DNA of 43,240 bases from a virus, in IMG/VR virus record IMGVR_UViG_3300000060_000001; one strand, 5' to 3'. A program made the position numbers and the translations under genes. Shown one piece after another: positions 15,942 to 39,179 of the stretch (within the stretch, counting starts at the first letter, position 1; each line of letters starts with the position of its first letter). The notes beneath the pieces were generated by a model. It was given only the letters and a program-made list of their open reading frames with translations, was not told where the DNA came from and searched no databases.

Positions 15942-18371
15942 TCAGCAGAAAAACTTGCTTGAACTATTCACAAGCTGCAAGTCCAGATTGCCCCGCTCAG
16001 GTGCTTCACGATTATATGCTAAAGCAAGCTGTTGGATAGGGTCGCATTGCTCGTACATCTCTACGAATTTTTGCCGAATAACCTTATGCATCAAGCCAGC
16101 ATGCGCCGCCGCACACCCGAAGGAGTCGTGGATGGACACCATGTATACCCCGTTATTCCACATCTCCCACAGGACTTTCATCATGTGGCTGGCATCCATA
16201 GAGTGAACAAAGTTCGGAGCAATCGCCGCTGCACACTTCCGTGCGTCCGGCTTATCCAGATACTCCCGCACCTTGATGCCGTGAATGCCCATCAGCTGCA
16301 GCTTCATGATGGTGTCTTTACTGGCCGCATACAGGTTAGGAACACGCAGCCCAGAAGGTGCCTCCCACTCCACGTACTCGCCCATAGACGCGGCCTCGTA
16401 CGCGATAGCCTGCAGCCACGCCATAAGCTCAGCAGCCTTAGGCACAACACGAGGTATAGCCGCCCACATGTACTCAGCGATGTACTGCGCGCACTCCAGC
16501 AGACTCTTGCCCTGTGGCAGCTTGATGTGGTTCTCCCGGAGGTACAGACAGTAGTAGTCGACCATGCCGTGCCGTGTCGCACCGTACACGTAGGTCATTA
16601 CAGGCTTCTTGGCCATAGCACGCTGCACACCGAGACTTACCAGCCAGCTACCCATCTGGGTAGGGTTGACTGCTTCATCGCGTTGTAGGGCTTCCAGCGC
16701 AGCCGTAGCCGTCTTGATGTAGATGTCAGCCTTGCGGCCCACATGGTCAATCAGGTTCACAGCTGCGCCGCCTACCTCATCGCGCAGCATTGCCGACAAG
16801 TGCTGCAGTCCCGAGCATGTGGCATCCCACTGTGTTACGACACGGCTTGGATATGCCTCAGGGTTGCCAGAATCCAACGCTCTGAGCAAGTCAGACGCAG
16901 CCGCCCATGCGCACAGAGGGCTGTCGGCTTCCGCCCAGAACGAGTCGTACGCCTCCGGCAGTCGGCAGGCTTCCCGCAGGCGCGGTAGCATCTTATCAAC
17001 GTACGCTGCCCGGTCACTGAAGTCTGTGGAGTCATAGCCGAAGCAGTTGGCTATATGTACCTTGAGCCAGAACATACCCTCTTTACCCAGCGGCACTGGC
17101 TCAGCCAGCTCCAGCAGCGCGCGTACAGCGTCGATGCCTTGAGGATTCAGGTTGGATGCATAGTAGCAGCGGCCCCGCGTATCCGCATACGTAGGCAGGT
17201 AGACGCGTTCGAACTCCGCATACTTGGCTGCCTCGTTGATAGCCGCGTTGAGCGCCACCATCTTGGAGGAGAACTTGCGCAGCTCCCCGTAGTACAGCCG
17301 GGTGCGCACCTTGTACTCCGTCAGCTCGGCGTCCATGCGCGCCTGCATCTCTTCAGGGAATTTGCTTACGTACTGCGCGATGGTAATGCCCGCAGGTATG
17401 GTGAACGGCAGTTTAGGCTTAACTGGTTCAGCGGGCAGATTCATCACGCCTGTGCGGTTGCGTAATAAAAACTCCAGCACCATCGGGTTAACCCTGAATG
17501 GGACGCTGGATAACATCATGAGCGGCTCTATAACTGGCAGCGGGTCGACACCCATCTTGCGGTAGTCGCGATGGCGCAGTCGGCTGATGGCTGTGTACAT
17601 TGCGGCCTGCCCCGGAGACTGCCACATACCGCTCAACCCGTCACGGGATATCTGCGTGGGTGGGACAATCATCGGAGGGTAGCACATCCCATCAGAGCGC
17701 GGGAGGTTAATCCAATCGTTCATGGCTACAAGCACATCGTCGTGCAGGTGGAAGTGCGCGGTGCCACGCATGCCCCGGTTGCCACCAACACGGGCTGTAG
17801 TGATTAGCCCGGTAGGCTCAACGCAGCGCATCATCAGCTTACCGATTGTGATGAGTGCCTGCTGTGGCAGCAGCTCCATACCCACCCCAACATTAGCAGC
17901 TGAGGCTCTGGCCTTGTGGTAGATGTGGTTGGCTGATTTGGACTTGGAGCGCCGGACGTCGCGGGCAACCTTCTCCATGTAGGCAGCCTGCTTTGCCCCG
18001 GCCTTGGCGGCCCGATTGTACGTAACCTCAGCCATCAAAGCCTTACCCATATCCTTGAGCAGTATGGTGGCTTGCTGCTCTGCGGCAGCTCCTGACACGG
18101 CCATGCCCAGCGCGAGGCTGGCGCATGTCCTTACGCCCAGCTCTCGCATGTATCCCCGGTACTGCGCGCCGAAGCCACGGGTGGTTTCATTCATGATTTT
18201 GTCCATAGCTGCTTCGACGGTAGGGTACGCCTCCGCCATCATGCGCTGCAGCATTGGTACAGAACCAGCGCGCCCACTGGCTAATGCCTCACGAATGTTG
18301 TCGAGCCAGCCCTGACGATGCAGGGCACGGGCTTCCTCTTCCATCTCAATTTGCTTTTGGACTAAATCCAT
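15942..18371 (-). CDS. T7-like single-subunit DNA-dependent RNA polymerase, 809 aa
   Basis: [26 protein letters not shown] matches T7 [37 protein letters not shown] is motif B. SIHDSFG is motif C. Confidence 0.95.
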   Translation of the reverse strand: [809 protein letters not shown]

Positions 18372-29181: not shown

Positions 29182-29182
29182 T

Positions 29183-29896
29183 CTACTCCCCTACGATGTA
29201 TGCCCTGCCACACACGCTCAGCTCGCGTCTGAGACGCGCTGCGCTTGGGTGACGTATTGCTACGTCCGTGTACCCAAAGGCCAGCACAACGCTAACCAGA
29301 GCTTCTACGGTGGCATCATCCACGTTAGCCACGAACGCAGCACTACCACCCCCACGAATGTGCTCGACGTAGTCTGCCGCCTCAGAGTACACCCACATGT
29401 AGTGGTGCTCATCACCTTGGCGCTTTTGCTGTACCTTGACAGCAAGGCTGTGTTTATGCGGCGAGCGCCACGGAATGAACTGCTTGCCCGTGAAGTCCAG
29501 CCCACAGAACGATGCGGTATCATCCGGTAGGTATATGCGGCCATACGTCTCGGATGCAGTGAGCTGGGAGATGTGGGGCATCAGCCCCTCACGTTCAAGC
29601 ACAGGCATCAGCAGCGCCGGGCGCTTGGCAATCAGCTCGACCAGTGGACGAACATCGTCAGGCACCTTGGCTTGAACAACCTCGGCTACCTGATACGGTG
29701 CATGCTCAAGGTCAAGATGACGGGCATAGCCGCAGCGGTAGCACTTGCACCACACCCCGTCTTTGTCCCGGCCATACTCAAACGACGTCTTGTTGAACTT
29801 GGTCTGACACTGGTGGAATCCCCGGCGCTTGCTGCCTATGGGTAGACGCTTGGCCAAGTCTGGCCACTCGTCATTGTGAATGGCGCGTAGTTTCAT
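29183..29896 (-). CDS. Putative DNA primase, 237 aa
   Basis: Zinc-ribbon-like HQCQ...CKCYRCG. Position directly upstream of the helicase gene. Called mainly from synteny. Confidence 0.55.
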   Translation of the reverse strand: MKLRAIHNDEWPDLAKRLPIGSKRRGFHQCQTKFNKTSFEYGRDKDGVWCKCYRCGYARHLDLEHAPYQVAEVVQAKVPDDVRPLVELIAKRPALLMPVLEREGLMPHISQLTASETYGRIYLPDDTASFCGLDFTGKQFIPWRSPHKHSLAVKVQQKRQGDEHHYMWVYSEAADYVEHIRGGGSAAFVANVDDATVEALVSVVLAFGYTDVAIRHPSAARLRRELSVCGRAYIVGE

Positions 29897-30330
29897 TCTT
29901 TATCCCACTCGTTCTGGTAGGTGGTGATGCGTTTACGGTTGAGTGTGGCTACTACCTTGACCACACGCACGCAGCTGAGCTTGTGCGCTGCAGCCAATCG
30001 TTCAGCTTCAGCGTATGCCTCTTCTTCAGTGCAATGAGTTACCTTAGGTTCACGCCCACTGTCGGGTACTACGCACATGTAGCGCCCCCTCGTCTCTGCG
30101 GTAGGCATATGCATTAGTGCGTTTCTAGCCATATCGGCGTTGTAATTTCGAATGGCATAGTCAATACGCGTATCACCATGCTCATCAACATTCCAGCACA
30201 CAGCTAATACTAGGTCTGTTGGACATTTTGGAACCGGATTAACCCATATTACAATCCCGGTACTACGGTAAAGCCCAGAGTTTGGATGTGTATTCCACAC
30301 GCGGTCGCCTACTTTAAATTCTGTATTCAT
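29893..30330 (-). CDS. Hypothetical protein, 145 aa
   Basis: ATGA overlaps at both ends. Confidence 0.7.
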   Translation of the reverse strand: MNTEFKVGDRVWNTHPNSGLYRSTGIVIWVNPVPKCPTDLVLAVCWNVDEHGDTRIDYAIRNYNADMARNALMHMPTAETRGRYMCVVPDSGREPKVTHCTEEEAYAEAERLAAAHKLSCVRVVKVVATLNRKRITTYQNEWDKE

Positions 30331-30509
30331 TTAATCCACCTTCTGTTATAACCGATGTCCAGTGACTTACACATAGCAAATCCACCGTAAGCCATGCCAG
30401 CTAAAAATGTCACGGCTGGGGGCAGCATAGGAAAGAAGTAAAGGGTGCTACCAAGCACGATAGTCCATACTAATATGAATAAAATAAATAAGCCTAATAC
30501 ACGCAACAT
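30327..30509 (-). CDS. Small membrane protein with two predicted TM helices, 60 aa
   Basis: GGAGG RBS. Hydrophobic stretches VLGLFILFILVWTIVLGSTLYFF and AVTFLAGMAYGGFAMC. Confidence 0.6.
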   Translation of the reverse strand: MLRVLGLFILFILVWTIVLGSTLYFFPMLPPAVTFLAGMAYGGFAMCKSLDIGYNRRWIK

Positions 30510-30528
30510 AAATACCTCCGCAAGTTGT

Positions 30529-30549
30529 CGGCAATATAGTAGTTCTCAT
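30529..30549 (-). promoter_or_regulatory. Phage-promoter-like motif, copy C (ATGAGAACTACTATATTGCCG)
   Basis: Intergenic, at the boundary between the early genes and the replication module. Matches the consensus shared with 15907-15935. Confidence 0.45.
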
Positions 30550-30574
30550 AATGCCCACTAATATAATGGGCATT
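30550..30574 (-). promoter_or_regulatory. Intergenic hairpin (AATGCCCA-N9-TGGGCATT) directly upstream of promoter-like copy C
   Basis: 8-bp perfect stem. No U tract follows, so it is not a classical intrinsic terminator. Confidence 0.5.
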
Positions 30575-30583
30575 GGGATACGG

Positions 30584-30751
30584 CTATGCTGCCATATAAT
30601 TGGCAATGCGCTCTAAGTCATCCAGCTTGGACTCAGCTTCCCACCGAGTATCGCGCACGGCCAGTGGTTTCATTGGTTCGGCCTCGTTAATCACCCACCA
30701 GTGCATGCCAGTGGGTGACTTGCGCACAGCCAGCTTAATGTTTGCTTGCAT
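30584..30751 (-). CDS. Hypothetical protein, 55 aa
   Basis: AGAGG-N6-ATG at 30751. Overlaps the upstream gene by 17 nt. Confidence 0.5.
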   Translation of the reverse strand: MQANIKLAVRKSPTGMHWWVINEAEPMKPLAVRDTRWEAESKLDDLERIANYMAA

Positions 30752-31247
30752 GCTGTGCCTCTGCGATTGCTGCCAGTACCTCAGCACCTACATTGTCGCG
30801 CAGGTGCACCACAAAGGCGTCGAACACCTCAGCTATAAAGAACAACATGATTGCAGTCGGGCTAACGTCCGCCGGGAATACGCTGTTCATGTACCAGTCG
30901 TGATACATCTCCGGCCCACGGTCAGTGGCCATTTCACCAATAAGGTGCACGGCTGTATGGTCGATGAACTGCACCATCAGCTCGTCAGCAGCGTGCTCTT
31001 GACGATTGGCGTTAGCCACCAGCTCAACCAGAATGGCCAGTTGTGCGCCCGTAACGGATGTAGCGATAGCTTCCGGGCGCAATACCTTCAGCTCATCGGC
31101 GCGCAGCAGTGACAGGTACACGCGCTTGGGAAGGTAGCCGCCTTGATACTCAACTACAGCCAGCGCGTCCGCGTCGTCCAGCTCAATGGCTGACTTGATT
31201 ACACTGTCGCGCTGCTCTTTGTTGAACTTCTCGAAGTTAATGGCCAT
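30735..31247 (-). CDS. Hypothetical protein, 170 aa
   Basis: ORF track. GAGGG RBS. Confidence 0.7.
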   Translation of the reverse strand: MAINFEKFNKEQRDSVIKSAIELDDADALAVVEYQGGYLPKRVYLSLLRADELKVLRPEAIATSVTGAQLAILVELVANANRQEHAADELMVQFIDHTAVHLIGEMATDRGPEMYHDWYMNSVFPADVSPTAIMLFFIAEVFDAFVVHLRDNVGAEVLAAIAEAQHASKH

Positions 31248-31249
31248 GA

Positions 31250-31543
31250 TTATTTACCCTCTTTGATTTTACGAATGGTGAACTTGTCACCCTCATACGC
31301 TTGGAATTCCACAGCAGTGTGGTGCCCCAGCTTGGTTACTACCAGACGGCTGCCGTCGTACTCGACCTCACCGATGCGCTGGATATAGCCGACATACGCC
31401 ACGACATAGTCGCCAATCTCCAGCTGCTCAGTGGTCTTGGTCACGTACTCAAACGGTGAGTCGTGCTCCTCAGGTCCGTCCGGGTACAGCACACTGTCTG
31501 TAATCCACTGCAGGAATTTCTCCCATTTACTTTTAATGCTCAT
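31250..31543 (-). CDS. Hypothetical protein, 97 aa
   Basis: ATGA overlap with the upstream stop. Confidence 0.7.
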   Translation of the reverse strand: MSIKSKWEKFLQWITDSVLYPDGPEEHDSPFEYVTKTTEQLEIGDYVVAYVGYIQRIGEVEYDGSRLVVTKLGHHTAVEFQAYEGDKFTIRKIKEGK

Positions 31544-31782
31544 GTTGTACCTCTCTTGAACTGAATATTAGTGCCGACCAATGTATACCAGTGTTGTTGT
31601 GCAAGCGTAATCCATTTCACTCGACGGCATACAACCCTAGACTGCACGGGATGCCCGCTGATAGCCCTGAGCACACAGCATTTATCGGTGCCGCGTGCCC
31701 AGCACATCATCCACCAATGGGTGCCATACGGGTCTACATAGACATTGCCTTGGCGGACGCGCGGCGTGTTTCTGCCATTCAT
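31540..31782 (-). CDS. Hypothetical W/C-rich basic protein, 80 aa
   Basis: ATGA overlaps at both ends. Confidence 0.6.
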   Translation of the reverse strand: MNGRNTPRVRQGNVYVDPYGTHWWMMCWARGTDKCCVLRAISGHPVQSRVVCRRVKWITLAQQHWYTLVGTNIQFKRGTT

Positions 31783-32057
31783 TGCGCTCTCCCGTCAAGC
31801 CAGCTCTCAGCCGCTGCGTACGCTGCGTCGTATGATATGTAGCCCTCATGCTCCTCACTGTCCGGCGATATGAAACCCCACAGCAAGCCGTTGCTAGGGT
31901 TACCATACGAGTAGATTACGCACGGGAACACGCCACCTACGCTATGACCACGCAGCCCGCCGTTACCAGCGCAGTGCCCTCTGGTTGCGGCTATACCACG
32001 GGCTTCCTCAAGCTCGCGTATAGCAGCAGGGCTAATGTCAGCTAATTTGTTAGCCAT
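31779..32057 (-). CDS. Hypothetical protein, 92 aa
   Basis: GGAGG-N6-ATG at 32057. The track start at 32120 lies inside the upstream hairpin region. Confidence 0.65.
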   Translation of the reverse strand: MANKLADISPAAIRELEEARGIAATRGHCAGNGGLRGHSVGGVFPCVIYSYGNPSNGLLWGFISPDSEEHEGYISYDAAYAAAESWLDGRAQ

Positions 32058-32116
32058 GATACACCTCCGCTTGTTTGATATTGAGTATGCCCTCACAGCG
32101 TAAGGGCATAGGCAAA

Positions 32117-32356
32117 TCAAGCAGTCAACTTAAATACTGTTGTGTCCCAAGGGGCTTTTGCATAGCCCACACGCCTACCCGTATCGTCTATGAAGACATA
32201 GTAGTCGAGACCACAGCCGGGATTTCCAAGGTCATCAACCTCCTCTGGGCCATACACCGTAGCTGCGTACGGCTTACCCTCCGTAACGTCGCACAGCATA
32301 TAATGCGCTGCGTCACTATCAATCTTTTCAAATGTAATTGCAACTTTACTAGCCAT
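32117..32356 (-). CDS. Hypothetical acidic protein, 79 aa
   Basis: GAGG RBS. ORF track. Confidence 0.65.
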   Translation of the reverse strand: MASKVAITFEKIDSDAAHYMLCDVTEGKPYAATVYGPEEVDDLGNPGCGLDYYVFIDDTGRRVGYAKAPWDTTVFKLTA

Positions 32357-32363
32357 GTGGACC

Positions 32364-32663
32364 TCACATCAAATTTATATTATGCCCATTAATGGACAGG
32401 GTGACGAGGACAGTGGTGCCATCCTTCGTTATGGATTCCCGCAGGCGGGGTAGCACTTCTTCGCAGGTGCCCACGAATGCCATGCGGGATATTTCGCCGG
32501 ACTTGCGCAGCTCGATTGAGCATGCATCGGTAATCTGTCCACCCGGCAGGCCGAGCGGAACATCATACCCATCTAAATGCACGCGTTCCACTGCGCTTGC
32601 TTTGGCTGTGTGGCTCACGCCGTAAAGGCTAGCCAGAAACAGCAGGATGAACAGACCTTTCAT
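32364..32663 (-). CDS. Early secreted/periplasmic protein with a cleavable signal peptide, 99 aa
   Basis: MKGLFILLFLASLYGVSHTAKA|SAVE is an n-h-c signal peptide with an AxA-like site. The ATG at 32663 is 2 nt after the upstream stop. Confidence 0.65.
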   Translation of the reverse strand: MKGLFILLFLASLYGVSHTAKASAVERVHLDGYDVPLGLPGGQITDACSIELRKSGEISRMAFVGTCEEVLPRLRESITKDGTTVLVTLSINGHNINLM

Positions 32664-32665
32664 GA

Positions 32666-32995
32666 TTAATCCCCTATACCGAACAGGTATATTTCGCCGT
32701 CGTAAATTACGTCCAGCTCGGCCAGCCACTTCTCAGTGACAGGCTCACCCGGACACCAGTGCTGGTCATTCAGCAGGTCAGTCACAAAAGCCAGCCCACT
32801 GGCATACGCTTTTGCCCGGTCGATAAGCTGCTGGTCAGTGGCCTTCTCGATGTCAATCGGAACACCCAGCACGTCAGCTTTGTCGAAGATAACCAGCCCT
32901 TCTTGGTTATCCGGCAGTCGATAGCGAAGACAAAACACAGGTTGCTTGTCCTCGCAGTCAATGCCCCGGTAGATACGGGCAGGTTGATGCGCCAT
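32666..32995 (-). CDS. Hypothetical protein, 109 aa
   Basis: GAGG RBS. ORF track. Confidence 0.7.
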   Translation of the reverse strand: MAHQPARIYRGIDCEDKQPVFCLRYRLPDNQEGLVIFDKADVLGVPIDIEKATDQQLIDRAKAYASGLAFVTDLLNDQHWCPGEPVTEKWLAELDVIYDGEIYLFGIGD

Positions 32996-33061
32996 TGTTT
33001 ACCTCAGTTGATGAACACAACGAAAGCCACCCGCGCAGGTAGCTTTGATTTTGTCCACCGT

Positions 33062-33235
33062 TTACAGCTTCCACAGCCATAGCAAATTGGTAGTGATACC
33101 AATCGCAATAGCATGCACAGGTGGGAGGAAGTAAGCAGCAGCCAAGCCTGCGCTAATGCATACTTTTAGGATAATAGCCGTCTCAATATGACGACGCTCA
33201 ATCCCCCGGAATCGGCCCACGATATTAATGCTCAT
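33062..33235 (-). CDS. Small hydrophobic protein, 57 aa (below the ORF-track cutoff)
   Basis: Hand translation MSINIVGRFRGIERRHIETAIILKVCISAGLAAAYFLPPVHAIAIGITTNLLWLWKL. The start overlaps the end of the preceding micro-gene. Confidence 0.4.
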   Translation of the reverse strand: MSINIVGRFRGIERRHIETAIILKVCISAGLAAAYFLPPVHAIAIGITTNLLWLWKL

Positions 33236-33401
33236 CGCCTAATACCGCCGTGCCAATCATGAACAGCAGCGTACCGCCAGCCATGAGACTGTAGAACAGA
33301 TGCCCTTCCAGTGCCGCCGCTGTCAGATACAGCGAATGAAACAGGAAGTGCATCTTGTGAGCCGCATGGCTGGCCGACGCCTTGCTAAGAGCTAATCGCA
33401 T
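33225..33401 (-). CDS. Small hydrophobic protein, 58 aa (below the ORF-track cutoff)
   Basis: Strong GGAGG-N5-ATG. Hand translation MRLALSKASASHAAHKMHFLFHSLYLTAAALEGHLFYSLMAGGTLLFMIGTAVLGDEH. Confidence 0.45.
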   Translation of the reverse strand: MRLALSKASASHAAHKMHFLFHSLYLTAAALEGHLFYSLMAGGTLLFMIGTAVLGDEH

Positions 33402-33504
33402 TAAACCTCCTACTTGATTGGTTTACGGCTGGCAAACGCCAGCCATACAGTTAGGCCGCCAGTGCTCAGGAACAAGGCGGCCATGTGGATTACTTCTACT
33501 GTAT

Positions 33505-33810
33505 TCACTTCTCTACGCTGAACAGCTCGCGGAACTCAGCGCCCTCAAGGTCGTCGCCATTCAACAGAGCGCTGCCGGATACAGCGGCGATGAGGACCAG
33601 AGGCATCTCACCCAGCGGTGCACTTTTGATAAAGTTTCCATCGCGCAGGTTCGCCGCGATAACGTCGTCGGTGTGACCTTCTGGGATTACACCCATAACC
33701 AGCACGCCTTCATCGCCTTCAACCTGCGCACCAACAACAGGTTGTGAATTGCCTTTGTCGAAGAAGTCTGCGCGAAGACCAGAAACAACGTAGAAAGTTA
33801 CTTTAGCCAT
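33505..33810 (-). CDS. Small acidic early protein, paralog family member (pairs with 33879-34172), 101 aa
   Basis: TTGAGGATTT-N5-ATG. MAKVTFYVVSGLRADFFDKGNSQPVVGAQVEGDEGVLVMGV aligns with MTKLAIISGIAAQYFEDGVSAPVVALVADEGYCLVGCL. Confidence 0.7.
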   Translation of the reverse strand: MAKVTFYVVSGLRADFFDKGNSQPVVGAQVEGDEGVLVMGVIPEGHTDDVIAANLRDGNFIKSAPLGEMPLVLIAAVSGSALLNGDDLEGAEFRELFSVEK

Positions 33811-33833
33811 TTTAAAATCCTCAATAGGTGATT

Positions 33834-33871
33834 GGCATGATTGCCCTACTGCGCCCACATTGTAGGCGCAG
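33834..33871 (-). promoter_or_regulatory. Intergenic hairpin + AATT-core module (CTGCGCC-N9-GGCGCAG, then GGGCAATCATGCC)
   Basis: One of seven reiterated modules. Order is stop, 5-8-bp stem, G/A-rich AATT palindrome-like box, RBS. Confidence 0.5.
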
Positions 33872-33878
33872 ACAGAAA

Positions 33879-34172
33879 TCACGCAGCAGCGTCGAAGTCA
33901 TAAATGACTTCTACAGTGGCATCCTCCAGCCCATTCGAATCTTTAGAGATGCACTGGCCGACAAGCATTGGCCACAGGAATACAGGTGGCAGGTCAGAAC
34001 CATCTGCGCCGCCCTGCTCAATGAAATGAGCTACTACATCTTCTTTTTTGTCTTCACCCAAGCAGCCAACAAGACAGTAGCCTTCATCAGCTACCAGCGC
34101 TACTACAGGAGCAGACACACCATCTTCGAAATACTGCGCAGCGATACCGGAAATGATTGCGAGCTTAGTCAT
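33879..34172 (-). CDS. Small acidic early protein, paralog family member, 97 aa
   Basis: TTGAGGATTT RBS region shared with 33505-33810. Protein similarity by eye. Confidence 0.7.
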   Translation of the reverse strand: MTKLAIISGIAAQYFEDGVSAPVVALVADEGYCLVGCLGEDKKEDVVAHFIEQGGADGSDLPPVFLWPMLVGQCISKDSNGLEDATVEVIYDFDAAA

Positions 34173-34194
34173 GATAAATCCTCAAAGTTATGGA

Positions 34195-34232
34195 GGCATA
34201 ATTGCCACGCTGCCCTCTCAGAGAAAGGACAG
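34195..34232 (-). promoter_or_regulatory. Intergenic hairpin + AATT-core module (CTGTCCT-N9-AGGGCAG, then GGCAATTATGCC)
   Basis: Same architecture as 33834-33871. Confidence 0.5.
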
Positions 34233-34239
34233 CAGGGTA

Positions 34240-34533
34240 TTACGCTACCGCTTCGATAAAGCGGTCAAGTGCTGGGTTGTCAATTTCAAACTCAGCCACT
34301 TGGATAGGGCTATACTGCGCTGCTGATTCAGGGGCGTATGGGCCGCCGCCCATCAGGAAGTGAATCGGTGCATCATCACTCTTCAGCATGCGCTCCACAT
34401 CAGCAATGCCGTCTTCCAGCTTTGCGCCCTCATTCAAGTCGAGGCCGAGTGACGGTGTGCCCTCTACAGGCTCACCCAGCAGAACAATCATGGTTACTTT
34501 ATCGCTGGTGAGCAGTACGTTTACTTTGGTCAT
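34240..34533 (-). CDS. Small acidic early protein, paralog family member (pairs with 34598-34879), 97 aa
   Basis: CCAACCGGAGATT-N4-ATG at 34533. The track's 195-aa version reads through the intergenic module. MTKVNVLLTSDKVTMIVLLGEPVEGTPSLGLDL aligns with MATINFYRVTEDRFVVVVGELRDGAPCIGFQI. Confidence 0.7.
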   Translation of the reverse strand: MTKVNVLLTSDKVTMIVLLGEPVEGTPSLGLDLNEGAKLEDGIADVERMLKSDDAPIHFLMGGGPYAPESAAQYSPIQVAEFEIDNPALDRFIEAVA

Positions 34534-34553
34534 TTTGAATCTCCGGTTGGTAT

Positions 34554-34590
34554 GGCGTAATTGCCGCATTGCCCCCTCGTAAGGAGGCAA
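34554..34590 (-). promoter_or_regulatory. Intergenic hairpin + AATT-core module (TTGCCTCC-TTAC-GAGGGGGCAA, then GGCAATTACGCC)
   Basis: Same architecture as the other modules. Confidence 0.5.
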
Positions 34591-34597
34591 TAAGGCT

Positions 34598-34879
34598 TTA
34601 CGCGAAATCTTCAGCGTCGATATCTTCAATCTCAAAGCTGGTGTACAGCTCTGGATTTGGGTTCGAAGCTTGCACTTTGGACAAGTCAAGCTGGCCGCCC
34701 TGAAACACGAACATAATACCACCCAGCACTTCCAGCTTTTCACGGAATTCAGTGATTGCACTTTCTGGATTGGACTCAGGCTTAATCTGGAAGCCAATGC
34801 AAGGCGCGCCGTCGCGCAGCTCACCAACTACAACAACAAAGCGGTCTTCAGTGACGCGGTAGAAATTGATAGTAGCCAT
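34598..34879 (-). CDS. Small acidic early protein, paralog family member, 93 aa
   Basis: CCAACCGGAGATT-N6-ATG at 34879. The C-terminal FEIEDIDAEDFA compares with FEIDNPALDRFIEAVA in the neighbour. Confidence 0.7.
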   Translation of the reverse strand: MATINFYRVTEDRFVVVVGELRDGAPCIGFQIKPESNPESAITEFREKLEVLGGIMFVFQGGQLDLSKVQASNPNPELYTSFEIEDIDAEDFA

Positions 34880-34899
34880 TAGGTAAATCTCCGGTTGGT

Positions 34900-34928
34900 T
34901 GACAGAATTGTCATAAAGCCAGCGCTTT
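34900..34928 (-). promoter_or_regulatory. Intergenic hairpin + AATT-core module (AAAGC-GCTG-GCTTT, then TGACAATTCTGTCA)
   Basis: Same architecture as the other modules. Confidence 0.45.
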
Positions 34929-34958
34929 GACACTGACTTGAGTCAATCCCGCTCAGCC

Positions 34959-35237
34959 TTACTCAGCTTCGGCTTCTACCACGCCGATGTGCTCCAGCTC
35001 AACAGGTTCTTCCCAGCGAGCAGCAGCCAGTTCGCTCAGCTCGTCGGCGTCATAGCCAGCCAGCATGAAGGCGATATCCGGTGGTACGCCTGCTTTTTGC
35101 AGTTCAACCAGCACGGCGCTGGCTTCTTCCGGCTCATGAGATTCACGGGCGTGGGCCAGATATTGACCTTGGCTTTCGACAATGTAAGCCAGTACAGATT
35201 TGGAGGTGGTGCCTTTCAGCAGGTACGCGTTTGCCAT
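34959..35237 (-). CDS. Small, very acidic early protein, 92 aa (possible distant member of the same family)
   Basis: AGGAG RBS. The C-terminus ELSELAAARWEEPVELEHIGVVEAEAE is strongly acidic. Confidence 0.65.
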   Translation of the reverse strand: MANAYLLKGTTSKSVLAYIVESQGQYLAHARESHEPEEASAVLVELQKAGVPPDIAFMLAGYDADELSELAAARWEEPVELEHIGVVEAEAE

Positions 35238-35265
35238 GTTAAGTCTCCTACGACTTGGGTTGTGT

Positions 35266-35298
35266 GGTTACAATTCAGGCCACTCAGTGAATGGCCTG
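35266..35298 (-). promoter_or_regulatory. Intergenic hairpin + AATT-core module (CAGGCCA-N9-TGGCCTG, then AATTGTAACC)
   Basis: Same architecture as the other modules. Confidence 0.45.
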
Positions 35299-35305
35299 TC
35301 AGTAA

Positions 35306-35827
35306 TCACGCTACCAGCTTGCGCAGGGCGTCCAGTGTTGCCTGTGGCACATGCACCTTGTCTGCGTCTTCCGGCAGGCCTTCACGGCGCAGCTTATCGG
35401 CCTGTTTAACGTGCTTCTCTGCACGGGCAATCAGGCGCTCCAGCTCGGTCTTCATGTCAAAGCCAGCAAACGGCGCTTCTGGCTTGCACTCCCACCACAT
35501 TTTGGCTTTAGCGTCGTCAATATGCGCTTTGATATACTCCGCGCCCTGCCAGCCGATAAAGCCATCTTTGTTGCCACCCAGCTTGCCTACCTGCAAGCCC
35601 CCGTACTGGACGAACCAGTCGACCAGTGCCTTACCGCGCACTGATTGGCCTAAGCCGTCGACCAAAGTCTGAGCACGAGTGTAGTCACCGTGCTTGTGAG
35701 CGTGCAGCAGGATGCCAACGGCGACATTCTGGATGTCTGCGCGCAGGGATTGGGCTTTCTTGAAAGCGCCGTCGATAGCTTTGTCCAGTGCTTCAGCAGT
35801 AGCGAAACTGGTATATTTAATGCTCAT
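35306..35827 (-). CDS. Hypothetical early protein, 173 aa
   Basis: GAGGTG-N6-ATG at 35827 (the track start at 35836 is GTG). Confidence 0.7.
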   Translation of the reverse strand: MSIKYTSFATAEALDKAIDGAFKKAQSLRADIQNVAVGILLHAHKHGDYTRAQTLVDGLGQSVRGKALVDWFVQYGGLQVGKLGGNKDGFIGWQGAEYIKAHIDDAKAKMWWECKPEAPFAGFDMKTELERLIARAEKHVKQADKLRREGLPEDADKVHVPQATLDALRKLVA

Positions 35828-35850
35828 GATATTCACCTCATTGGTTGATT

Positions 35851-35885
35851 AGGGTAATTCTCATAGCCCAACCATAGCTGGGCTA
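35851..35885 (-). promoter_or_regulatory. Intergenic hairpin + AATT-core module (TAGCCCA-N8-TGGGCTA, then GAGAATTACCCT)
   Basis: Same architecture as the other modules. Confidence 0.45.
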
Positions 35886-35891
35886 TAGGCA

Positions 35892-36152
35892 TTACTCTAC
35901 TACCCGTTCAAAACAGCAAACTGGAAGTGTTGCATAGTAGGCACCGTACTCCGGTCTGTTAGATTCCCATTCGACGATAACCTCGCCAGTGCCGTTAAAA
36001 CATCCATCACTATCGCGGCTGCCAGCGGGTACCAGTGTGCCCTCCACGATAGACTCACCCGCTTTCAGCTCTTCTGCATTTGCGATGCGCCCCGCAAAGC
36101 CTTTTAAGTGTGCAACAACGGATTCAACGCCTACGTAACGATATTTAGCCAT
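35892..36152 (-). CDS. Hypothetical early protein, 86 aa
   Basis: GAGG RBS. ORF track. Confidence 0.65.
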   Translation of the reverse strand: MAKYRYVGVESVVAHLKGFAGRIANAEELKAGESIVEGTLVPAGSRDSDGCFNGTGEVIVEWESNRPEYGAYYATLPVCCFERVVE

Positions 36153-36180
36153 TTTTACTACCTCGCATTTAAGGGGATTT

Positions 36181-36216
36181 AGGTTAACTTCACATAGCGC
36201 CTGTTTAAGACGCTAT
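36181..36216 (-). promoter_or_regulatory. Intergenic hairpin + degenerate AATT-type box (ATAGCG-N10-GCGCTAT, then GAAGTTAACCT)
   Basis: Same architecture, but more degenerate. Confidence 0.4.
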
Positions 36217-36222
36217 AGGCTG

Positions 36223-36288
36223 TTAGCCAAAGACACGAAACAGCACACAGAGAAAAATGACATACACGACAAGCTCGAAGTGAGTCAT
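36223..36288 (-). CDS. Possible 21-aa hydrophobic micro-protein (MTHFELVVYVIFLCVLFRVFG)
   Basis: ATGA translational-coupling overlap with the stop of the 130-aa gene. One TM-length hydrophobic stretch. No other support. Confidence 0.25.
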   Translation of the reverse strand: MTHFELVVYVIFLCVLFRVFG

Positions 36289-36677
36289 TTTGCTACCCAC
36301 ACGTATTTCCCATCGTATGAGAAATCGCCGTTGTAGTCAGTTGGCATGGCATCAGCTGGTGTGCGCTCCGCTTTGCCAGCAGGCACCCAGCCAGCCTCAG
36401 GCTCGACAAGGTACGCATCCATAGTATCCATATCAATACTGAGGATGCAGTCCTGTTCAAACACCTGTTTAGCCAGTATCGCCAGACTCATAACCTCGCC
36501 TTCTGTGTGCACTTCCACACGGATAGACATTTCGTTATGACCTAAGTAGCATCCGGCCACTTGCACCGGATGCACTTGAAACAGGTCAGTAACAGCGCGA
36601 GATAACAGAGCATGCCGCGCCATATTGTTGATGCCGTCGTATTCGTCTCTGTGGGCACTCAGGAATACAGTAAACAT
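36285..36677 (-). CDS. Hypothetical early protein, 130 aa
   Basis: GAGGTG-N4-ATG at 36677 (the track start at 36689 is GTG inside the RBS). Confidence 0.7.
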   Translation of the reverse strand: MFTVFLSAHRDEYDGINNMARHALLSRAVTDLFQVHPVQVAGCYLGHNEMSIRVEVHTEGEVMSLAILAKQVFEQDCILSIDMDTMDAYLVEPEAGWVPAGKAERTPADAMPTDYNGDFSYDGKYVWVAK

Positions 36678-36700
36678 GGTACACCTCACTCATTGGTTAT

Positions 36701-36805
36701 TATCTGGAGAGTAGCCCATCCATTGTGGCGCTTGCTTTCTTCATGCTTATGAGCATATAGCCTCGCTTGAGCATTTGAGCATTTGCCGGATGGGCTACCC
36801 AGATA
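36701..36805 (-). promoter_or_regulatory. Long interrupted stem (18 bp in total, 7 + 11 bp separated by a 3-nt bulge) enclosing 66 nt, 25 nt upstream of the second early gene. RNase III-site-like.
   Basis: Minus-sense UAUCUGG-GUAGCCCAUCC ... GGAUGGGCUAC-ucu-CCAGAUA. The 11-bp part is perfect. The loop contains the tandem CAAATGCT-CAAATGCT and a small ATGCT-CATA-AGCAT hairpin. Confidence 0.5.
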
Positions 36806-37118
36806 AATCACCTCAGAATCGCCCAGAAATTCGCCTTACGTCTTAACGTCATCCCGCATTTGCTTGGGATGCTAACTGGCTTTCAGCCGTCCAGCTCACC
36901 ATTGCTAGCTCGCTTACCAACCTACTAGACCAGACCGTCTATAACGTTGCATCGGGATATGTATGCATACCGCGCCGGAGCGCCTCTCTGTTTTCCCGTA
37001 AGCGGTATCCTTATCGCCCCCTACCTAAGTCCACGCTCGCCGTGGCTCCCGAGTAGGTCACTGACATCTTTTAGGCTTTCACCTCAGGTGGCCGCTTGAC
37101 CTGTGTTGCTTGAGACGT

Positions 37119-37147
37119 ATTACAGCAGACTGAAAACTTGCTGTCAA
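37119..37147 (-). promoter_or_regulatory. Sigma70-type early promoter (TTGACA-17 nt-TGTAAT)
   Basis: -35 TTGACA at 37142-37147 and -10 TGTAAT at 37119-37124 on the minus strand. AT-rich upstream tract. The core is homologous to the promoter at 37733-37762. Confidence 0.65.
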
Positions 37148-37197
37148 TACTATTTTCGAGATATTCATCACATTTCTGTGAATGTCTATCTCATCCA

Positions 37198-37218
37198 GCT
37201 AGTGCCCTGATAGGCTAG
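37198..37218. repeat. Left arm of the 20-21-bp inverted repeat bracketing the first early ORF
   Basis: GCTAGTGCCCTGATAGGCTAG pairs with 37500-37520. As RNA this gives 20 contiguous pairs including one G-U. Confidence 0.85.
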
Positions 37219-37235
37219 CTCGCGCTAGCCATCAC

Positions 37236-37481
37236 TCAATCAACTATACCGCCACCTTTCATACGGGCGTCCAGTGCGGATTGAACATCCGCCAGTGCGT
37301 CATCTACCGCGCCAACGCTCATCCCAAGCACAGTCGATAACCAGTCGTCATCACCTGCAAAGGTAGAATCAATTTCGCGCAGCGTTTCGCGTGCGGCCTG
37401 CAGTTTCGCAGCCCACACAGCCATTTGAATCAGCTGCGCACGTGTATAGTCGAATTTGTACAAGTCAATGTTAATGCTCAT
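37236..37481 (-). CDS. First early protein, small and acidic, 81 aa
   Basis: GAGG-N9-ATG. ORF track. Function unknown. Confidence 0.7.
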   Translation of the reverse strand: MSINIDLYKFDYTRAQLIQMAVWAAKLQAARETLREIDSTFAGDDDWLSTVLGMSVGAVDDALADVQSALDARMKGGGIVD

Positions 37482-37499
37482 GATAGTAACCTCATTCAG

Positions 37500-37520
37500 T
37501 TAGCCTATCAGGACACTAGC
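37500..37520. repeat. Right arm of the inverted repeat bracketing the first early ORF
   Basis: TTAGCCTATCAGGACACTAGC is the reverse complement of 37198-37218 with 2 DNA mismatches, one of which is G-U compatible in RNA. Confidence 0.85.
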
Positions 37521-37524
37521 CAGA

Positions 37525-37536
37525 TTGTTAAAGAGC
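37525..37536 (-). promoter_or_regulatory. rrn-type boxA antitermination element (GCTCTTTAACAA)
   Basis: 12/12 match to the E. coli rrn boxA core GCUCUUUAACAA. It is in sense orientation in the early leader, 4 nt upstream of the 5' arm of the long-range stem. Confidence 0.6.
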
Positions 37537-37732
37537 GTTTGGGATGGCTCAACCTTCTTAGCTCAACGTGTATTGCGTTCGGTAGCTGGCTTATCCGCTC
37601 TTACGTCGAAACTCACCATGCGTTACATTGCTCATCGTCATATTGCGTCTGGTATGTCTTCAGGTACTTAGGCGTCACACCTTCCCCTAGCCATCCCCCG
37701 AATCACGTTACCCTGTGTTTCGGTGTGATTGA

Positions 37733-37762
37733 ATTACAGCACACAACCTAAAAACCTTGCAA
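37733..37762 (-). promoter_or_regulatory. Sigma70-type early promoter (TTGCAA-18 nt-TGTAAT) with an upstream UP-like AT tract
   Basis: -35 at 37757-37762 and -10 at 37733-37738. A second TTGCAA lies at 37770-37775. The tract AGAAAATAATTCGAATTTATTT (37774-37795) lies immediately upstream. Confidence 0.55.
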
Positions 37763-37792
37763 GCTCTTTTTGCAAATAAATTCGAATTATTT

Positions 37793-37886
37793 TCTAAGTG
37801 TATGTATTCAGTAGTAATTTAGTTGAATGGATAAAACATACAGATACCGTTTAAACCCTATTTTTACCATCGTCTAAGTGTATGTA
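37793..37886. repeat. Two direct copies of TCTAAGTGTATGTA (37793-37806 and 37873-37886) in the AT-rich island
   Basis: Exact 14-mers 80 bp apart. This is the only strongly AT-rich segment of the genome. Confidence 0.8.
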
Positions 37887-37901
37887 ATACATAGTTAATT
37901 C

Positions 37902-37930
37902 ATAAAAACTACTATCATGCTAGTGACAGC
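37902..37930 (+). promoter_or_regulatory. Inverted copy (A) of the phage-promoter-like motif (ATAAAAACTACTATCATGCTAGTGACAGC), oriented opposite to all genes
   Basis: 22-nt exact match (37905-37926) to the minus strand at 15911-15932. The wider alignment is 27/29 by eye. It is followed on the plus strand by a purine-rich, T-poor tract like the leader after copy B. Confidence 0.5.
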
Positions 37931-38165
37931 TATCAGCTGGAGCTGGCGATGAGCAAGCGTGAAACGCTGTGAGGCGAATCGGTGAGCGTGAGGAGTCGAG
38001 AGACGTGAGTCTCTGAGACGACGCGCAGCGAACGTGTACCAGTGACAGCGTGTGTACCAGTAGAAGTAACAGGAGTAGACAGTGACGGTGTGACCGTGAC
38101 ACTGACAGCAGGTGAGAGTCCTGTACAGAGTAGAGAGTGAACCAGTGGTGCAGCGAGAGTGTACC

Positions 38166-38206
38166 ATCCCGCACCATCCAACCATCCCCGTGTATCCCCG
38201 TATCCC
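38166..38206. repeat. Five closely spaced ATCC(C) units. On the gene-sense strand these read GGGAT..GGGGAT..GGGGAT..GGAT..GGGAT, a G-run cluster.
   Basis: Units start at 38166, 38176, 38184, 38194 and 38202. Confidence 0.75.
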
Positions 38207-38226
38207 GTCGTGTGCATCACGACAAG

Positions 38227-38266
38227 GCAAAAGAGATTGAGAGCAGGTGACAGCAAAAGAGATTGA
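38227..38266. repeat. Direct repeat GCAAAAGAGATTGA x2 (38227-38240 and 38253-38266)
   Basis: Exact 14-mers 26 bp apart. These are the only A/T-containing islands inside the T-depleted tract. Confidence 0.8.
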
Positions 38267-38536
38267 TACGACCGCGCGCACTCTCCGATACCACAGACAC
38301 GGTGTGACCGTCCCCATACCATAGAGCGCACACAGTACACAGCCATAGGCGCAACGTACGGTACCGCCACGCCACGCACAGCATGAGGCAATGCGATTGC
38401 ATAGCCCATAGCCCAGCGCCCCGCACAGCGCGATACAGAGCGCCTGACACGCTACGCCATCCACGACGGCACAGCAGCACAGCCAGCGGCAGCCCATCGC
38501 GCAATAATGACCGCGCGCGAAGAGCGACGGCAGCCA

Positions 38537-38549
38537 CCCCCTACGGGGG
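38537..38549. other. CCCCC-TAC-GGGGG hairpin near the presumed genome end
   Basis: Perfect 5-bp G/C stem. It is reminiscent of the CCCCCATAGGGGG element that I recall near the T7 left end. Confidence 0.5.
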
Positions 38550-38642
38550 CATCGCGCGGCTTATGGGTCGAGGGACCACCACGCACAATTACCCAATTTT
38601 CAAGCCCTGACTTTTACGCCAAGGCCTGTTCAATGACCTAGG

Positions 38643-39179
38643 TTATAGTGTTTGGCAATACGCGGCGCAGCGCTTGGCGCGCGCTACCAGTGCTGCCCTG
38701 TACTTGACTATGGTAGGCGCAGTGCTGGCATTCAGGAACTCAACGCGTATGTCACAGATGGACTGAGCAAGGGCGCGAGGTTCCATGCGCTTTGATTTTG
38801 CCACGGATAGAGGACCGAGAGCGCCGTCTTGTGCAACCCCGCAGGCCCGCTGTAGAGCTTTAACAGCCCGCTGCACGCCGGAGTTGACGGCGAAGTCGAA
38901 GACAGCGCATGCAACCGCAGGGTGTAGCTCGTCACCACGGATAGGGGCAAAGTAGTCTCGTCTGTAAATTGCTTCTGCTTGCTCTTTGGTGAGAGCTTTG
39001 ACAGGCACACAAATAGTCCCGCCAGTACCAGTAGGGACACCACAAGCATACCCATCCAGCTTGCCATCACGAGCGTCAGAGATACCATGATTAGTTTCGC
39101 CTCCAGTGTCACCGGGCAGCTTGGTGTAGCCACCCTCGGCCAGCCCGGTGAACTTCATACATAATTCAAAATTTGTCAT
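38643..39179 (-). CDS. Endolysin: GH108-type N-acetylmuramidase with a PG_binding_3-like C-terminal domain, 178 aa
   Basis: LAEGGYTKLPGDTGGETNHGIS contains the GH108 EGGY..GG.T..GI pattern. QDGALGPLS is a peptidoglycan-binding motif. There is no N-terminal hydrophobic or SAR segment. Confidence 0.8.
   Translation of the reverse strand: MTNFELCMKFTGLAEGGYTKLPGDTGGETNHGISDARDGKLDGYACGVPTGTGGTICVPVKALTKEQAEAIYRRDYFAPIRGDELHPAVACAVFDFAVNSGVQRAVKALQRACGVAQDGALGPLSVAKSKRMEPRALAQSICDIRVEFLNASTAPTIVKYRAALVARAKRCAAYCQTL

Follow-up and report, generated by a model that had tools for sequence, protein, structure and literature searches.

The first early gene of a 43,240-nucleotide (nt) stretch of viral DNA (IMG/VR record IMGVR_UViG_3300000060_000001; the whole stretch is referred to as the window) is enclosed by a long-range RNA helix (P1), the 5' strand of which starts at a boxA identical to that of the Escherichia coli ribosomal RNA (rrn) operon rrnB. 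This locus is one copy of a conserved, modular early-gene RNA cassette of enterobacterial podophages of the T7 family; it occurs in more than 100 phage records and is not a peculiarity of this genome. Comparison of related modules shows P1, a local hairpin overlapping it (P2) and the junction carrying the Shine-Dalgarno sequence to be conserved, covarying structures of the sense-strand RNA.

A boxA and a long-range helix around the first early open reading frame

The module in the window consists of the following features (bp, base pairs; ORF, open reading frame):

37536..37525, minus strand: boxA (GCTCTTTAACAA / GCUCUUUAACAA), exact 12/12 match to the rrn boxA 12-mer
37501..37525, minus strand: 5' strand of helix P1 (A-UCUGGCUAGUGUCCUGAUAGGCUA), pairing with 37217..37193
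37488..37500, minus strand: junction strand with the Shine-Dalgarno sequence GAGG (37493..37490), read from the sequence
37480..37486, minus strand: 5' strand of P3 (CUAUCAU), overlapping the start codon and pairing with 37235..37229 in the minimum-free-energy fold
37481..37236, minus strand: cargo ORF of 81 amino acids (aa), the first ORF after the promoter, enclosed by P1
37229..37235, minus strand: 3' strand of P3 (GUGAUGG), directly after the stop codon, from the minimum-free-energy fold
37213..37230, minus strand: P2, a local 7-bp hairpin with GNRA loop (GGCUAGC-GCGA-GCUAGCC), overlapping the 3' strand of P1 by 5 nt
37193..37217, minus strand: 3' strand of helix P1 (UAGCCUAUCAGGGCACUAGCUGGAU), pairing with 37525..37501

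The order on the minus strand, as read from the sequence, is ...AAAC-GCTCTTTAACAA-TCTGGCTAGTGTCCTGATAGGCTA-ACTGAATGAGGTTACTATC-ATG... The original prediction, made from the letters of the window alone, had claimed a 12/12 match to the rrn boxA core at this position, and this match stands: the 12-mer occurs as a single copy in the window and is identical to the boxA of the E. coli rrnB leader and to that of phage T7. Matches with at most one mismatch arose in only 8 of 100 dinucleotide shuffles. A scan of the window with the consensus GYUCUUUAANA (GYTCTTTAANA as DNA; PMC5725501) revealed no other credible boxA, the one-mismatch matches being at chance level and outside the early region. The boxA is located on the strand of all large ORFs, and a conserved sigma-70-like promoter, uncalled by a strict scan, is predicted upstream of it. 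Judged from its sequence, it has a good probability of being a functional Nus site.

A 20-nt arm following boxA (GCTAGTGTCCTGATAGGCTA, 37520..37501) had likewise been predicted to be complementary to 37218..37199 with one G-U pair, yielding a helix of RNase III substrate length that brackets the first early ORF. This structural reading holds, the helix being longer than first noted: P1 comprises 25 uninterrupted pairs between 37525..37501 and 37217..37193, including three G-U pairs. The helix has a duplex energy of -44 kcal/mol, its pair probabilities range from 0.78 to 1.0 in the ensemble of the whole 366-nt module, and it belongs to the minimum-free-energy fold (z = -6.0 versus shuffles). 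The duplex score of 56 compares to a mean of 22.6 (standard deviation 2.5, maximum 32) in 300 shuffles of the downstream kilobase and to scores of 14-39 in reversed-sequence controls at 151 boxA sites. Since 283 nt separate the two arms, with the ORF between them, P1 is not a local intergenic hairpin of the T7 type. The existence of this helix is regarded as practically certain.

Within the helix, the 81-aa cargo product has no homologue except itself among 5.8 billion proteins, and matches neither a Pfam nor a PHROG family. The boxA is positioned ~32 nt upstream of the cargo Shine-Dalgarno sequence; it runs into the 5' strand of P1, and no short hairpin of the boxB kind is found between boxA and the Shine-Dalgarno sequence. 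Folded alone, the 3' region of the module forms an 11-bp GNRA-capped hairpin (-20.4 kcal/mol) that includes P2, and a role of this modelled structure in protecting the 3' end after a cut in P1 is plausible. A covariance-model scan of 35500..39000 with Rfam 15 yielded no match at E <= 1.

Other long-range helices were sought in 28000-37300, where only 73-93 % complementary repeats were present; these were rejected as chance, one arm being located inside a coding region in the case examined.

Covariation and selection at the RNA level

Conservation and covariation in related phages had been named as a check in the original prediction, and the outcome is decisive. In an anchored, ungapped alignment (A2) of 19 distinct modules with 21 pair columns, 97.2 % of the cells form standard pairs (81.7 % in shuffles), both strands are changed at 13 of the 21 pairs, and double changes occur in 53 cells versus 12.4 expected; none of 500 shuffles reached any of these values. 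Sliding the partner strand by 1-3 columns lowers the pairing to 23-43 %, and several P1 columns hold three or four Watson-Crick pair types. About 31 of the 399 cells (own count from the table) are G-U pairs. Since these would be A-C mismatches on the other strand, the selected structure is that of the sense RNA. Correspondingly, P1 is present in the predicted fold of all 19 modules.

P2 forms a 6-7 bp hairpin in each of 15 distinct variants (typically GCUGGC-ACUA-GCCAGC in the relatives), covaries, contains G-U pairs and is strand-swapped in Erwinia phage Pecta. Its 3' strand overlaps the 3' strand of P1 by 3-5 nt, implying local competition between P1 and P2. The start/stop pairing P3 (ACUAUC/GAUAG) appears in ~11 of 19 predicted folds of relatives, and most of the predicted folds involve part of the Shine-Dalgarno sequence in pairing.

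Distribution and anatomy of the module in relatives

In a sensitive BLAST search with 37800..37100, 143 of 50,697 phage records were matched, the alignment in most of them covering just the ~60 nt that correspond to boxA, the 5' strand of P1 and the ribosome-binding site. The matched groups comprise SP6, K1-type Vectrevirus, K1-5, Pectobacterium PhiM1-like phages, Lelliottia phage phD2B, Klebsiella phages and KL01, and furthermore Cronobacter phage Peggy, Pseudomonas phage MR4, Vibrio phage R15Z and Erwinia phage Pecta (Zobellviridae). In every relative that was fetched, the 5' strand of P1 has a partner 146-570 nt downstream.

The modules share the order boxA, 5' strand of P1, Shine-Dalgarno sequence with ATG, small variable ORF (36-88 codons), P2 hairpin and 3' strand of P1. 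In all 21 related modules boxA is exact, on the sense strand and 2-5 nt before P1. P1 itself is composed of a variable outer part of 11-14 bp and an invariant inner pairing, TGATAGGC(T)/(A)GCCTATCA, of which the inner 9 bp do not change. It is followed by a single-stranded junction with the Shine-Dalgarno sequence (TAACTAAC..AAGGTGA), by ACTATC directly before the ATG and by GATAG directly after the stop codon. The motif AGGTGAC..TATC was also considered as a promoter of a phage RNA polymerase; this reading was rejected, as the motif fits a Shine-Dalgarno sequence, and its spacing presumably differs from that of the SP6 promoter.

A 20-base module-specific pattern was found in 28 viral contigs, most of them with strong partners. 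The same pattern had 11 matches in 185,579 bacterial and archaeal genomes, as compared to ~10 expected by chance; these were located in unrelated metagenome-assembled genomes with background duplex scores of 14-28. Based on this pattern search, the module appears to be phage-specific. The 51-nt element had no BLAST match in any of 5,426 E. coli genomes, the similarity to rrn being confined to ~12-17 nt.

IMG/VR also contains a 122-kb viral contig (L160/L171) with a module typical of family A, which has a covarying P2 (GGCUUGC-AAAUA-GCAAGCC) and is followed by a boxA. This contig exceeds by far the ~40-46 kb of the contigs and records holding most other modules, and could represent a different phage type or a chimeric assembly.

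Cassette behaviour: cargo, tandem copies and empty forms

The same flanks carry unrelated cargo in at least 17 phages from several subfamilies and a second family (Zobellviridae), the cargo ORFs being mutually unrelated by blastp except for two pairs of near-identical phages. Early regions of the relatives contain 2-5 boxAs in tandem, and 13 of 21 modules have a further boxA starting 0-3 nt downstream of the 3' strand of P1, an arrangement which fits a need to reload after each cut. Where two family-A modules are present within one genome (MR4, FBKp16 and R15Z), they differ in their outer helices, so that cross-pairing between the modules would be prevented. Other stem families follow the same rule; one of them (TGCTTAGTGTAACCTATGTAAGCCGTGG) brackets gp2-4 of SP6 and gp1-2 of K1-5.

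Forms without cargo exist as well. In Bonnellvirus aldrigsur, the closest relative examined, GCTCTTTAACAATCTGG runs directly into TGTG-TTGACA-17-TGTAAT, without arms and without ORF; this promoter after boxA-TCTGG is the counterpart of the second promoter in the window. IMG/VR contig L175 (reverse strand, ~2508-2620) harbours an empty module with a T7-like layout. Here, a local P1 hairpin of 19 bp comes directly after boxA-TCTGG; its loop measures ~30 nt and contains no ORF. The gene after this hairpin (MKLTKTEVIQHCREVF...) is homologous to the cargo inside the P1 loop of Klebsiella phage FBKp16.

A MITE (miniature inverted-repeat transposable element) with terminal inverted repeats was considered as the identity of the element and rejected: the outer helix is variable with an invariant inner 9 bp, all 21 modules share the same orientation after boxA, and there is one copy per window.

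In K1-5 (L147, AY370674), a family-A module at ~1255-1464 encloses a 36-codon ORF (MKGLICVERMVNGK...) between the annotated genes 2 and 3. This ORF, which is not annotated in AY370674, was identified in L017 and L138, the module arms of which are identical to those of K1-5.

A fourth stem family was observed in IMG/VR contigs L069, L032, L041, L111, L036, L054 and L128, which represent regions of temperate, lambdoid-type E. coli phages. Here, a hairpin (AAGCGCCC-TACA-GGACGCTT) precedes a perfect boxA-TCTGG, followed by TCTGGATATCC..., which is paired with ...GGGGATATCCAGA 410-690 nt downstream and brackets small ORFs. The DicF RNA of Rfam is located ~290 nt beyond the 3' arm (e.g., L032 2845-3440 with DicF at 3713-3764). 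The sequences of this family suggest that the design of a boxA combined with a long-range helix is not confined to T7-family phages.

Comparison with known systems

The boxA core of the module is identical to that of the E. coli rrn operons, and the TCTGG at its 3' flank equals that of the rrnB spacer boxA (GCTCTTTAAAAATCTGGAT). In both systems, boxA precedes the 5' strand of a helix of at least 20 bp that is formed by the flanks of the excised RNA. Likewise, the rrn spacer boxA follows 16S rRNA, and modules of relatives carry a boxA after the 3' strand; the window lacks the latter. The module differs from rrn by enclosing an mRNA of 36-88 codons with its own Shine-Dalgarno sequence (81 codons in the window) instead of a structural RNA, and by a shorter loop (~0.15-0.6 kb versus 1.5-2.9 kb). 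Moreover, its boxA abuts the helix (0-5 nt), whereas the stem arm in the rrnB leader starts ~17 nt after boxA (own reading of the sequence), and neither boxB nor boxC was recognised at the module in the window. PMC8632103 describes the rrn complex as NusB-S10 bound to boxA together with NusA, NusG, SuhB and S4; this assembly holds the 5' leader at the RNA exit and is able to bring the 5' strand of the RNase III stem to the complementary sequence further downstream.

In the case of T7, a boxA-like sequence before the RNase III site R0.3 had been mentioned in the original prediction. Indeed, the identical 19-nt ACGCTCTTTAACAATCTGG is present at nt 813 of T7, downstream of the host promoters and ~100 nt ahead of gene 0.3, the first early gene. 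This boxA is followed by a local structure, which corresponds to R0.3; the early processing sites of T7 are local hairpins between genes. Thus, within the same phage family, T7 has a single boxA and local processing hairpins, whereas the ORF in the window is placed inside the loop of a helix; the empty variant on L175 bridges the two layouts. Mutations in the boxA antitermination element of T7 make Gp2 dispensable, as stated in PMC3709561 with reference to Savalia 2010, which implies boxA-dependent, antiterminated host transcription.

The position of boxA upstream of a ribosome-binding site is shared with nutL/N of phage lambda and with E. coli suhB. In these systems, the boxA-bound Nus complex represses translation via an RNA loop: repression of suhB is attributed to a loop between boxA and the polymerase and survives spacers up to 100 nt, and lambda nutL/N is called strikingly similar (PMC5725501). 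A work in the reference list of that paper concerns the modulation of N-mediated translation repression by RNase III. A boxB hairpin follows boxA in lambda nut, whereas the module in the window has no boxB and its structure extends over a long range around the whole ORF.

The promoter-early stem-loop (PeSL) cassettes of T4-type phages are also short conserved regulatory sequences flanking small variable early genes without known relatives, and are associated with modular shuffling. They are units of a promoter and a local stem-loop, without boxA and without an ORF-spanning helix.

Proposed function and alternative explanations

The following chain of events is proposed. Host RNA polymerase would start at a sigma-70-type promoter (promoter P1, assigned from conserved motifs) and transcribe the ~190-nt leader. 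The boxA RNA, given its sequence identity to rrn, would then load NusB-S10 and subsequently NusA, NusG and SuhB onto the polymerase, as in rrn and at the identical boxA of T7. A polymerase loaded in this way could resist Rho across the untranslated leaders (~190 nt before boxA and ~420 nt before the SAMase-like gene) as well as across the early genes; genetic support for the antitermination step comes from the T7 element alone. Following the rrn delivery model, tethering of boxA to the polymerase would keep the adjacent 5' strand of P1 near the RNA exit, where it could pair with the 3' strand emerging ~300 nt later and close a 25-bp helix around the ORF. The existence of this helix and selection for it are evident from covariation. 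RNase III would next cut the near-perfect helix and release a discrete monocistronic mRNA, as suggested by the helix length and the arrangement in T7 and rrn. The 3' end of the released mRNA may refold into the P2-based hairpin, and its ribosome-binding site would be freed from the loop between boxA and polymerase. In tandem arrays, each cut would remove the tether and the next boxA restore it, the variable outer half of P1 may serve as a module-specific address that lets tandem modules pair only with their own partner, and the conserved flanks would allow cargo swaps between phages.

In enterobacteria, RNase III would be expected to cleave near-perfect double-stranded RNA of 20-25 bp. A cut in P1 by this enzyme is fairly probable. 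The chain as a whole, i.e., Nus loading at boxA combined with a processing helix of RNase III type that surrounds an exchangeable gene cassette, is given about even chances. One may speculate that podophages have copied the full logic of the rRNA operon for protein genes, including a Nus/SuhB-chaperoned helix, excision by RNase III, re-arming by boxA, an orthogonal address in the outer helix and flanks portable across subfamilies; this more far-reaching proposal is tentative and rather doubtful.

Several observations weigh against the proposed chain. Aldrigsur keeps boxA without the helix, indicating that the coupling of boxA and helix is not obligatory and that the two are separable in evolution. 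P1 starts on the last base of boxA, so that pairing could compete with NusB/S10 binding instead of cooperating with it. The -10 element of promoter P1 is non-canonical (TGTAAT) and was missed by the strict scan. Nus complexes can, depending on context, also act as repressors of translation and favour Rho termination (PMC5725501). Searches for published work retrieved no experimental evidence of Nus binding or RNase III cleavage for any SP6-like phage, and no data on RNase III cleavage of P1 in vivo. Finally, no reload boxA follows the 3' strand of P1 anywhere in the window, and cleavage would detach the sole boxA from the polymerase. The original prediction had proposed that host RNA polymerase may become Rho-resistant across the early operon. 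A cut by RNase III would sever boxA from the nascent RNA, and the window lacks the reload boxA of 13 of 21 related modules, rendering such operon-wide resistance less secure here than originally proposed. After cleavage, the downstream genes in the window would depend on a persisting modified complex or on the second promoter, the transcripts of which have no boxA.

Among the alternatives, a translational gate would assign the main role to the RNA loop formed by the boxA-bound Nus complex, which together with P1 and P3 would hide the ribosome-binding site of the cargo; the cargo protein would be made only after the helix is cut, or briefly, and downstream antitermination would be secondary. 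The ~32 nt between boxA and the Shine-Dalgarno sequence are within the spacer range tolerated in suhB, the similar case of lambda N with its reported modulation by RNase III points in the same direction, P3 borders on the start codon, and part of the Shine-Dalgarno sequence is engaged in pairing in the majority of predicted folds. Left unexplained by such a gate are the boxA without a cassette in aldrigsur and T7, and the boxA after each 3' strand even before a different stem family. It is considered unlikely to replace the proposed chain, with which it is compatible and not mutually exclusive. Quite unlikely is a helix that insulates and protects the mRNA ends without being cut by RNase III, accompanied by boxA as an independent antiterminator. 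In such a scheme, P1 would join the flanks of the ORF and P2 cap its 3' side, shielding the mRNA from RNase E and 3' exonucleases and insulating its folding. This would agree with the strong selection on the helix and P2 and with the presence of boxA without the helix in close relatives. However, with a 190-nt leader ahead of it, an uncut helix would not coincide with the RNA ends, a boxA right after 13 of 21 3' strands has no rationale without cleavage, and a duplex of this length and near-perfection would be expected to be cut in enterobacteria.

The flanks could also act at the DNA level, as homology or recognition sites for gene exchange among co-infecting phages, in a manner comparable to the T4 cassettes, with the helix being incidental. 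Unrelated cargo between the same flanks in at least 17 phages including Zobellviridae, the absence of the cassette in aldrigsur and its empty form on L175, as well as a gene that is cargo within the loop of one phage and has its homologue downstream of the hairpin in another phage, are in line with such a recombination cassette. On the other hand, the outer helix varies with compensatory changes including sense-only G-U pairs, which shows selection on RNA and not conservation of a DNA site, and all 21 modules have one and the same orientation with respect to boxA and transcription. Shuffling more likely results from the conserved flanks than being the reason for which they exist, and this explanation is regarded as improbable. 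A chance inverted repeat beside a chance boxA match, for which the small size of the elements and nothing else speaks, is refuted by conservation and covariation; the shuffle and reversed-sequence controls also speak against it, and its probability is negligible.

Novelty and significance

The presence of a boxA in the early leader of T7-family phages and the processing of T7 early RNA by RNase III are already known. An ORF-spanning, covarying helix coupled to boxA was not found in the open-access literature, in Rfam or in the SP6, K1-5 and K1E records, although the 2004 genome papers of SP6 and K1-5 might hold it. The same sources, with the same limit concerning the 2004 papers, make no mention of the three-element fold, of the tandem arrangement with boxA after the helix or of the behaviour as swappable cassettes. 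The comparison thus defines a conserved, covarying structured RNA module that is missing from Rfam and unannotated in the records of SP6, K1-5 and K1E, and that structures the early regions in a large group of phages which are well studied and in therapeutic use (SP6-like, K1-specific, Pectobacterium and Klebsiella phages among them).

The rrn operons are essential and present in seven copies, rendering the delivery of RNA strands by boxA-tethered Nus complexes hard to test in rrn. The phage cassettes offer a dispensable setting, with boxA 0-5 nt away from a helix that has a loop of 150-600 nt. Should podophages indeed have copied the full logic of the rRNA operon, a non-essential phage cassette of 350 nt would be a convenient system for studying the delivery function that has long been proposed for Nus factors in rrn. 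Furthermore, the module indicates the sites at which phages maintain and exchange small early genes, which likely serve host takeover or anti-defence, and it suggests a natural design for insulated expression units.

Promoters, leaders and genome context

The early region surrounding the module comprises the following further features:

37774..37795, minus strand: AT-rich tract (AGAAAATAATTCGAATTTATTT), possibly UP-element-like, 15/22 match to the rrnB P1 UP element
37733..37762, minus strand: predicted sigma-70 promoter P1 with -35 TTGCAA (37762..37757) and -10 TGTAAT (37738..37733), 18-nt spacer including TGC
37537..37726, minus strand: untranslated leader of ~190 nt from promoter P1 to boxA, no ORF of >=30 aa on this strand
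37119..37147, minus strand: second predicted sigma-70 promoter, TTGACA, 17-nt spacer, TGTAAT with TGC extension, from motifs
36690..37112, minus strand: second untranslated leader of ~420 nt from the second promoter to the SAMase-like gene, a side observation

The strict sigma-70 consensus scan called neither promoter, promoter P1 having a G at position 2 of its -10 element. Their assignment is based on motif conservation with Bonnellvirus aldrigsur, in which the TTGCAA-17/18-TGCTGTAAT architecture is kept; it is repeated at the second promoter of the window. The AT-rich tract had been predicted to resemble the UP element of rrnB P1. The resemblance amounts to 15 of 22 positions, a value reached by 29 of 10000 composition shuffles; as to its location, the tract stops 11 nt upstream of the -35 hexamer and does not abut it, the proximal position being occupied by an A-tract (AAAAAGAG). 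Considering its sequence, a UP-like function of 37795..37774 is plausible.

The minus strand encodes all large ORFs. The lysis genes extend to near 38643 and the early genes proceed from ~37760 towards lower coordinates; the stretch between the lysis genes and the promoter region has no convincing ORFs. The second early gene (36689..36285) encodes a homologue of SAMase-type anti-restriction proteins. A gene for a phage RNA polymerase (18371..15942; PHROG 414, E = 1e-211) follows an ORF of DNA polymerase size, in agreement with a phiKMV-type layout, and is located ~19 kb further downstream of boxA, so that host polymerase must transcribe a long stretch. The closest genomes are those of Bonnellvirus (aldrigsur, Lidtsur and J8-65), with ~76 % identity over ~45 % of a 24-kb query; at this level of similarity, the window represents a new relative within the Autographiviridae.

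Part of the first leader (37692..37552) is 71 % identical over 147 aligned positions to the leader of Vibrio phage vB_ValA_R15Z (L135 757-896), where the counterpart is located upstream of the first boxA of R15Z. This part has no Rfam match and no ORF, and its sequence may represent a conserved leader RNA element.

The region 37895..38640, from an endolysin-like gene to the first promoter, contains only overlapping, implausible ORFs. It probably represents the genome terminus or a terminal-repeat region; in case of a terminus at this position, the 43.2-kb window would be a complete, permuted genome in reverse orientation.

The second leader (36690..37112) contains no boxA and has no Rfam match. 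Near its 3' end, a 39-nt stretch (~36922..36884) is conserved with aldrigsur.

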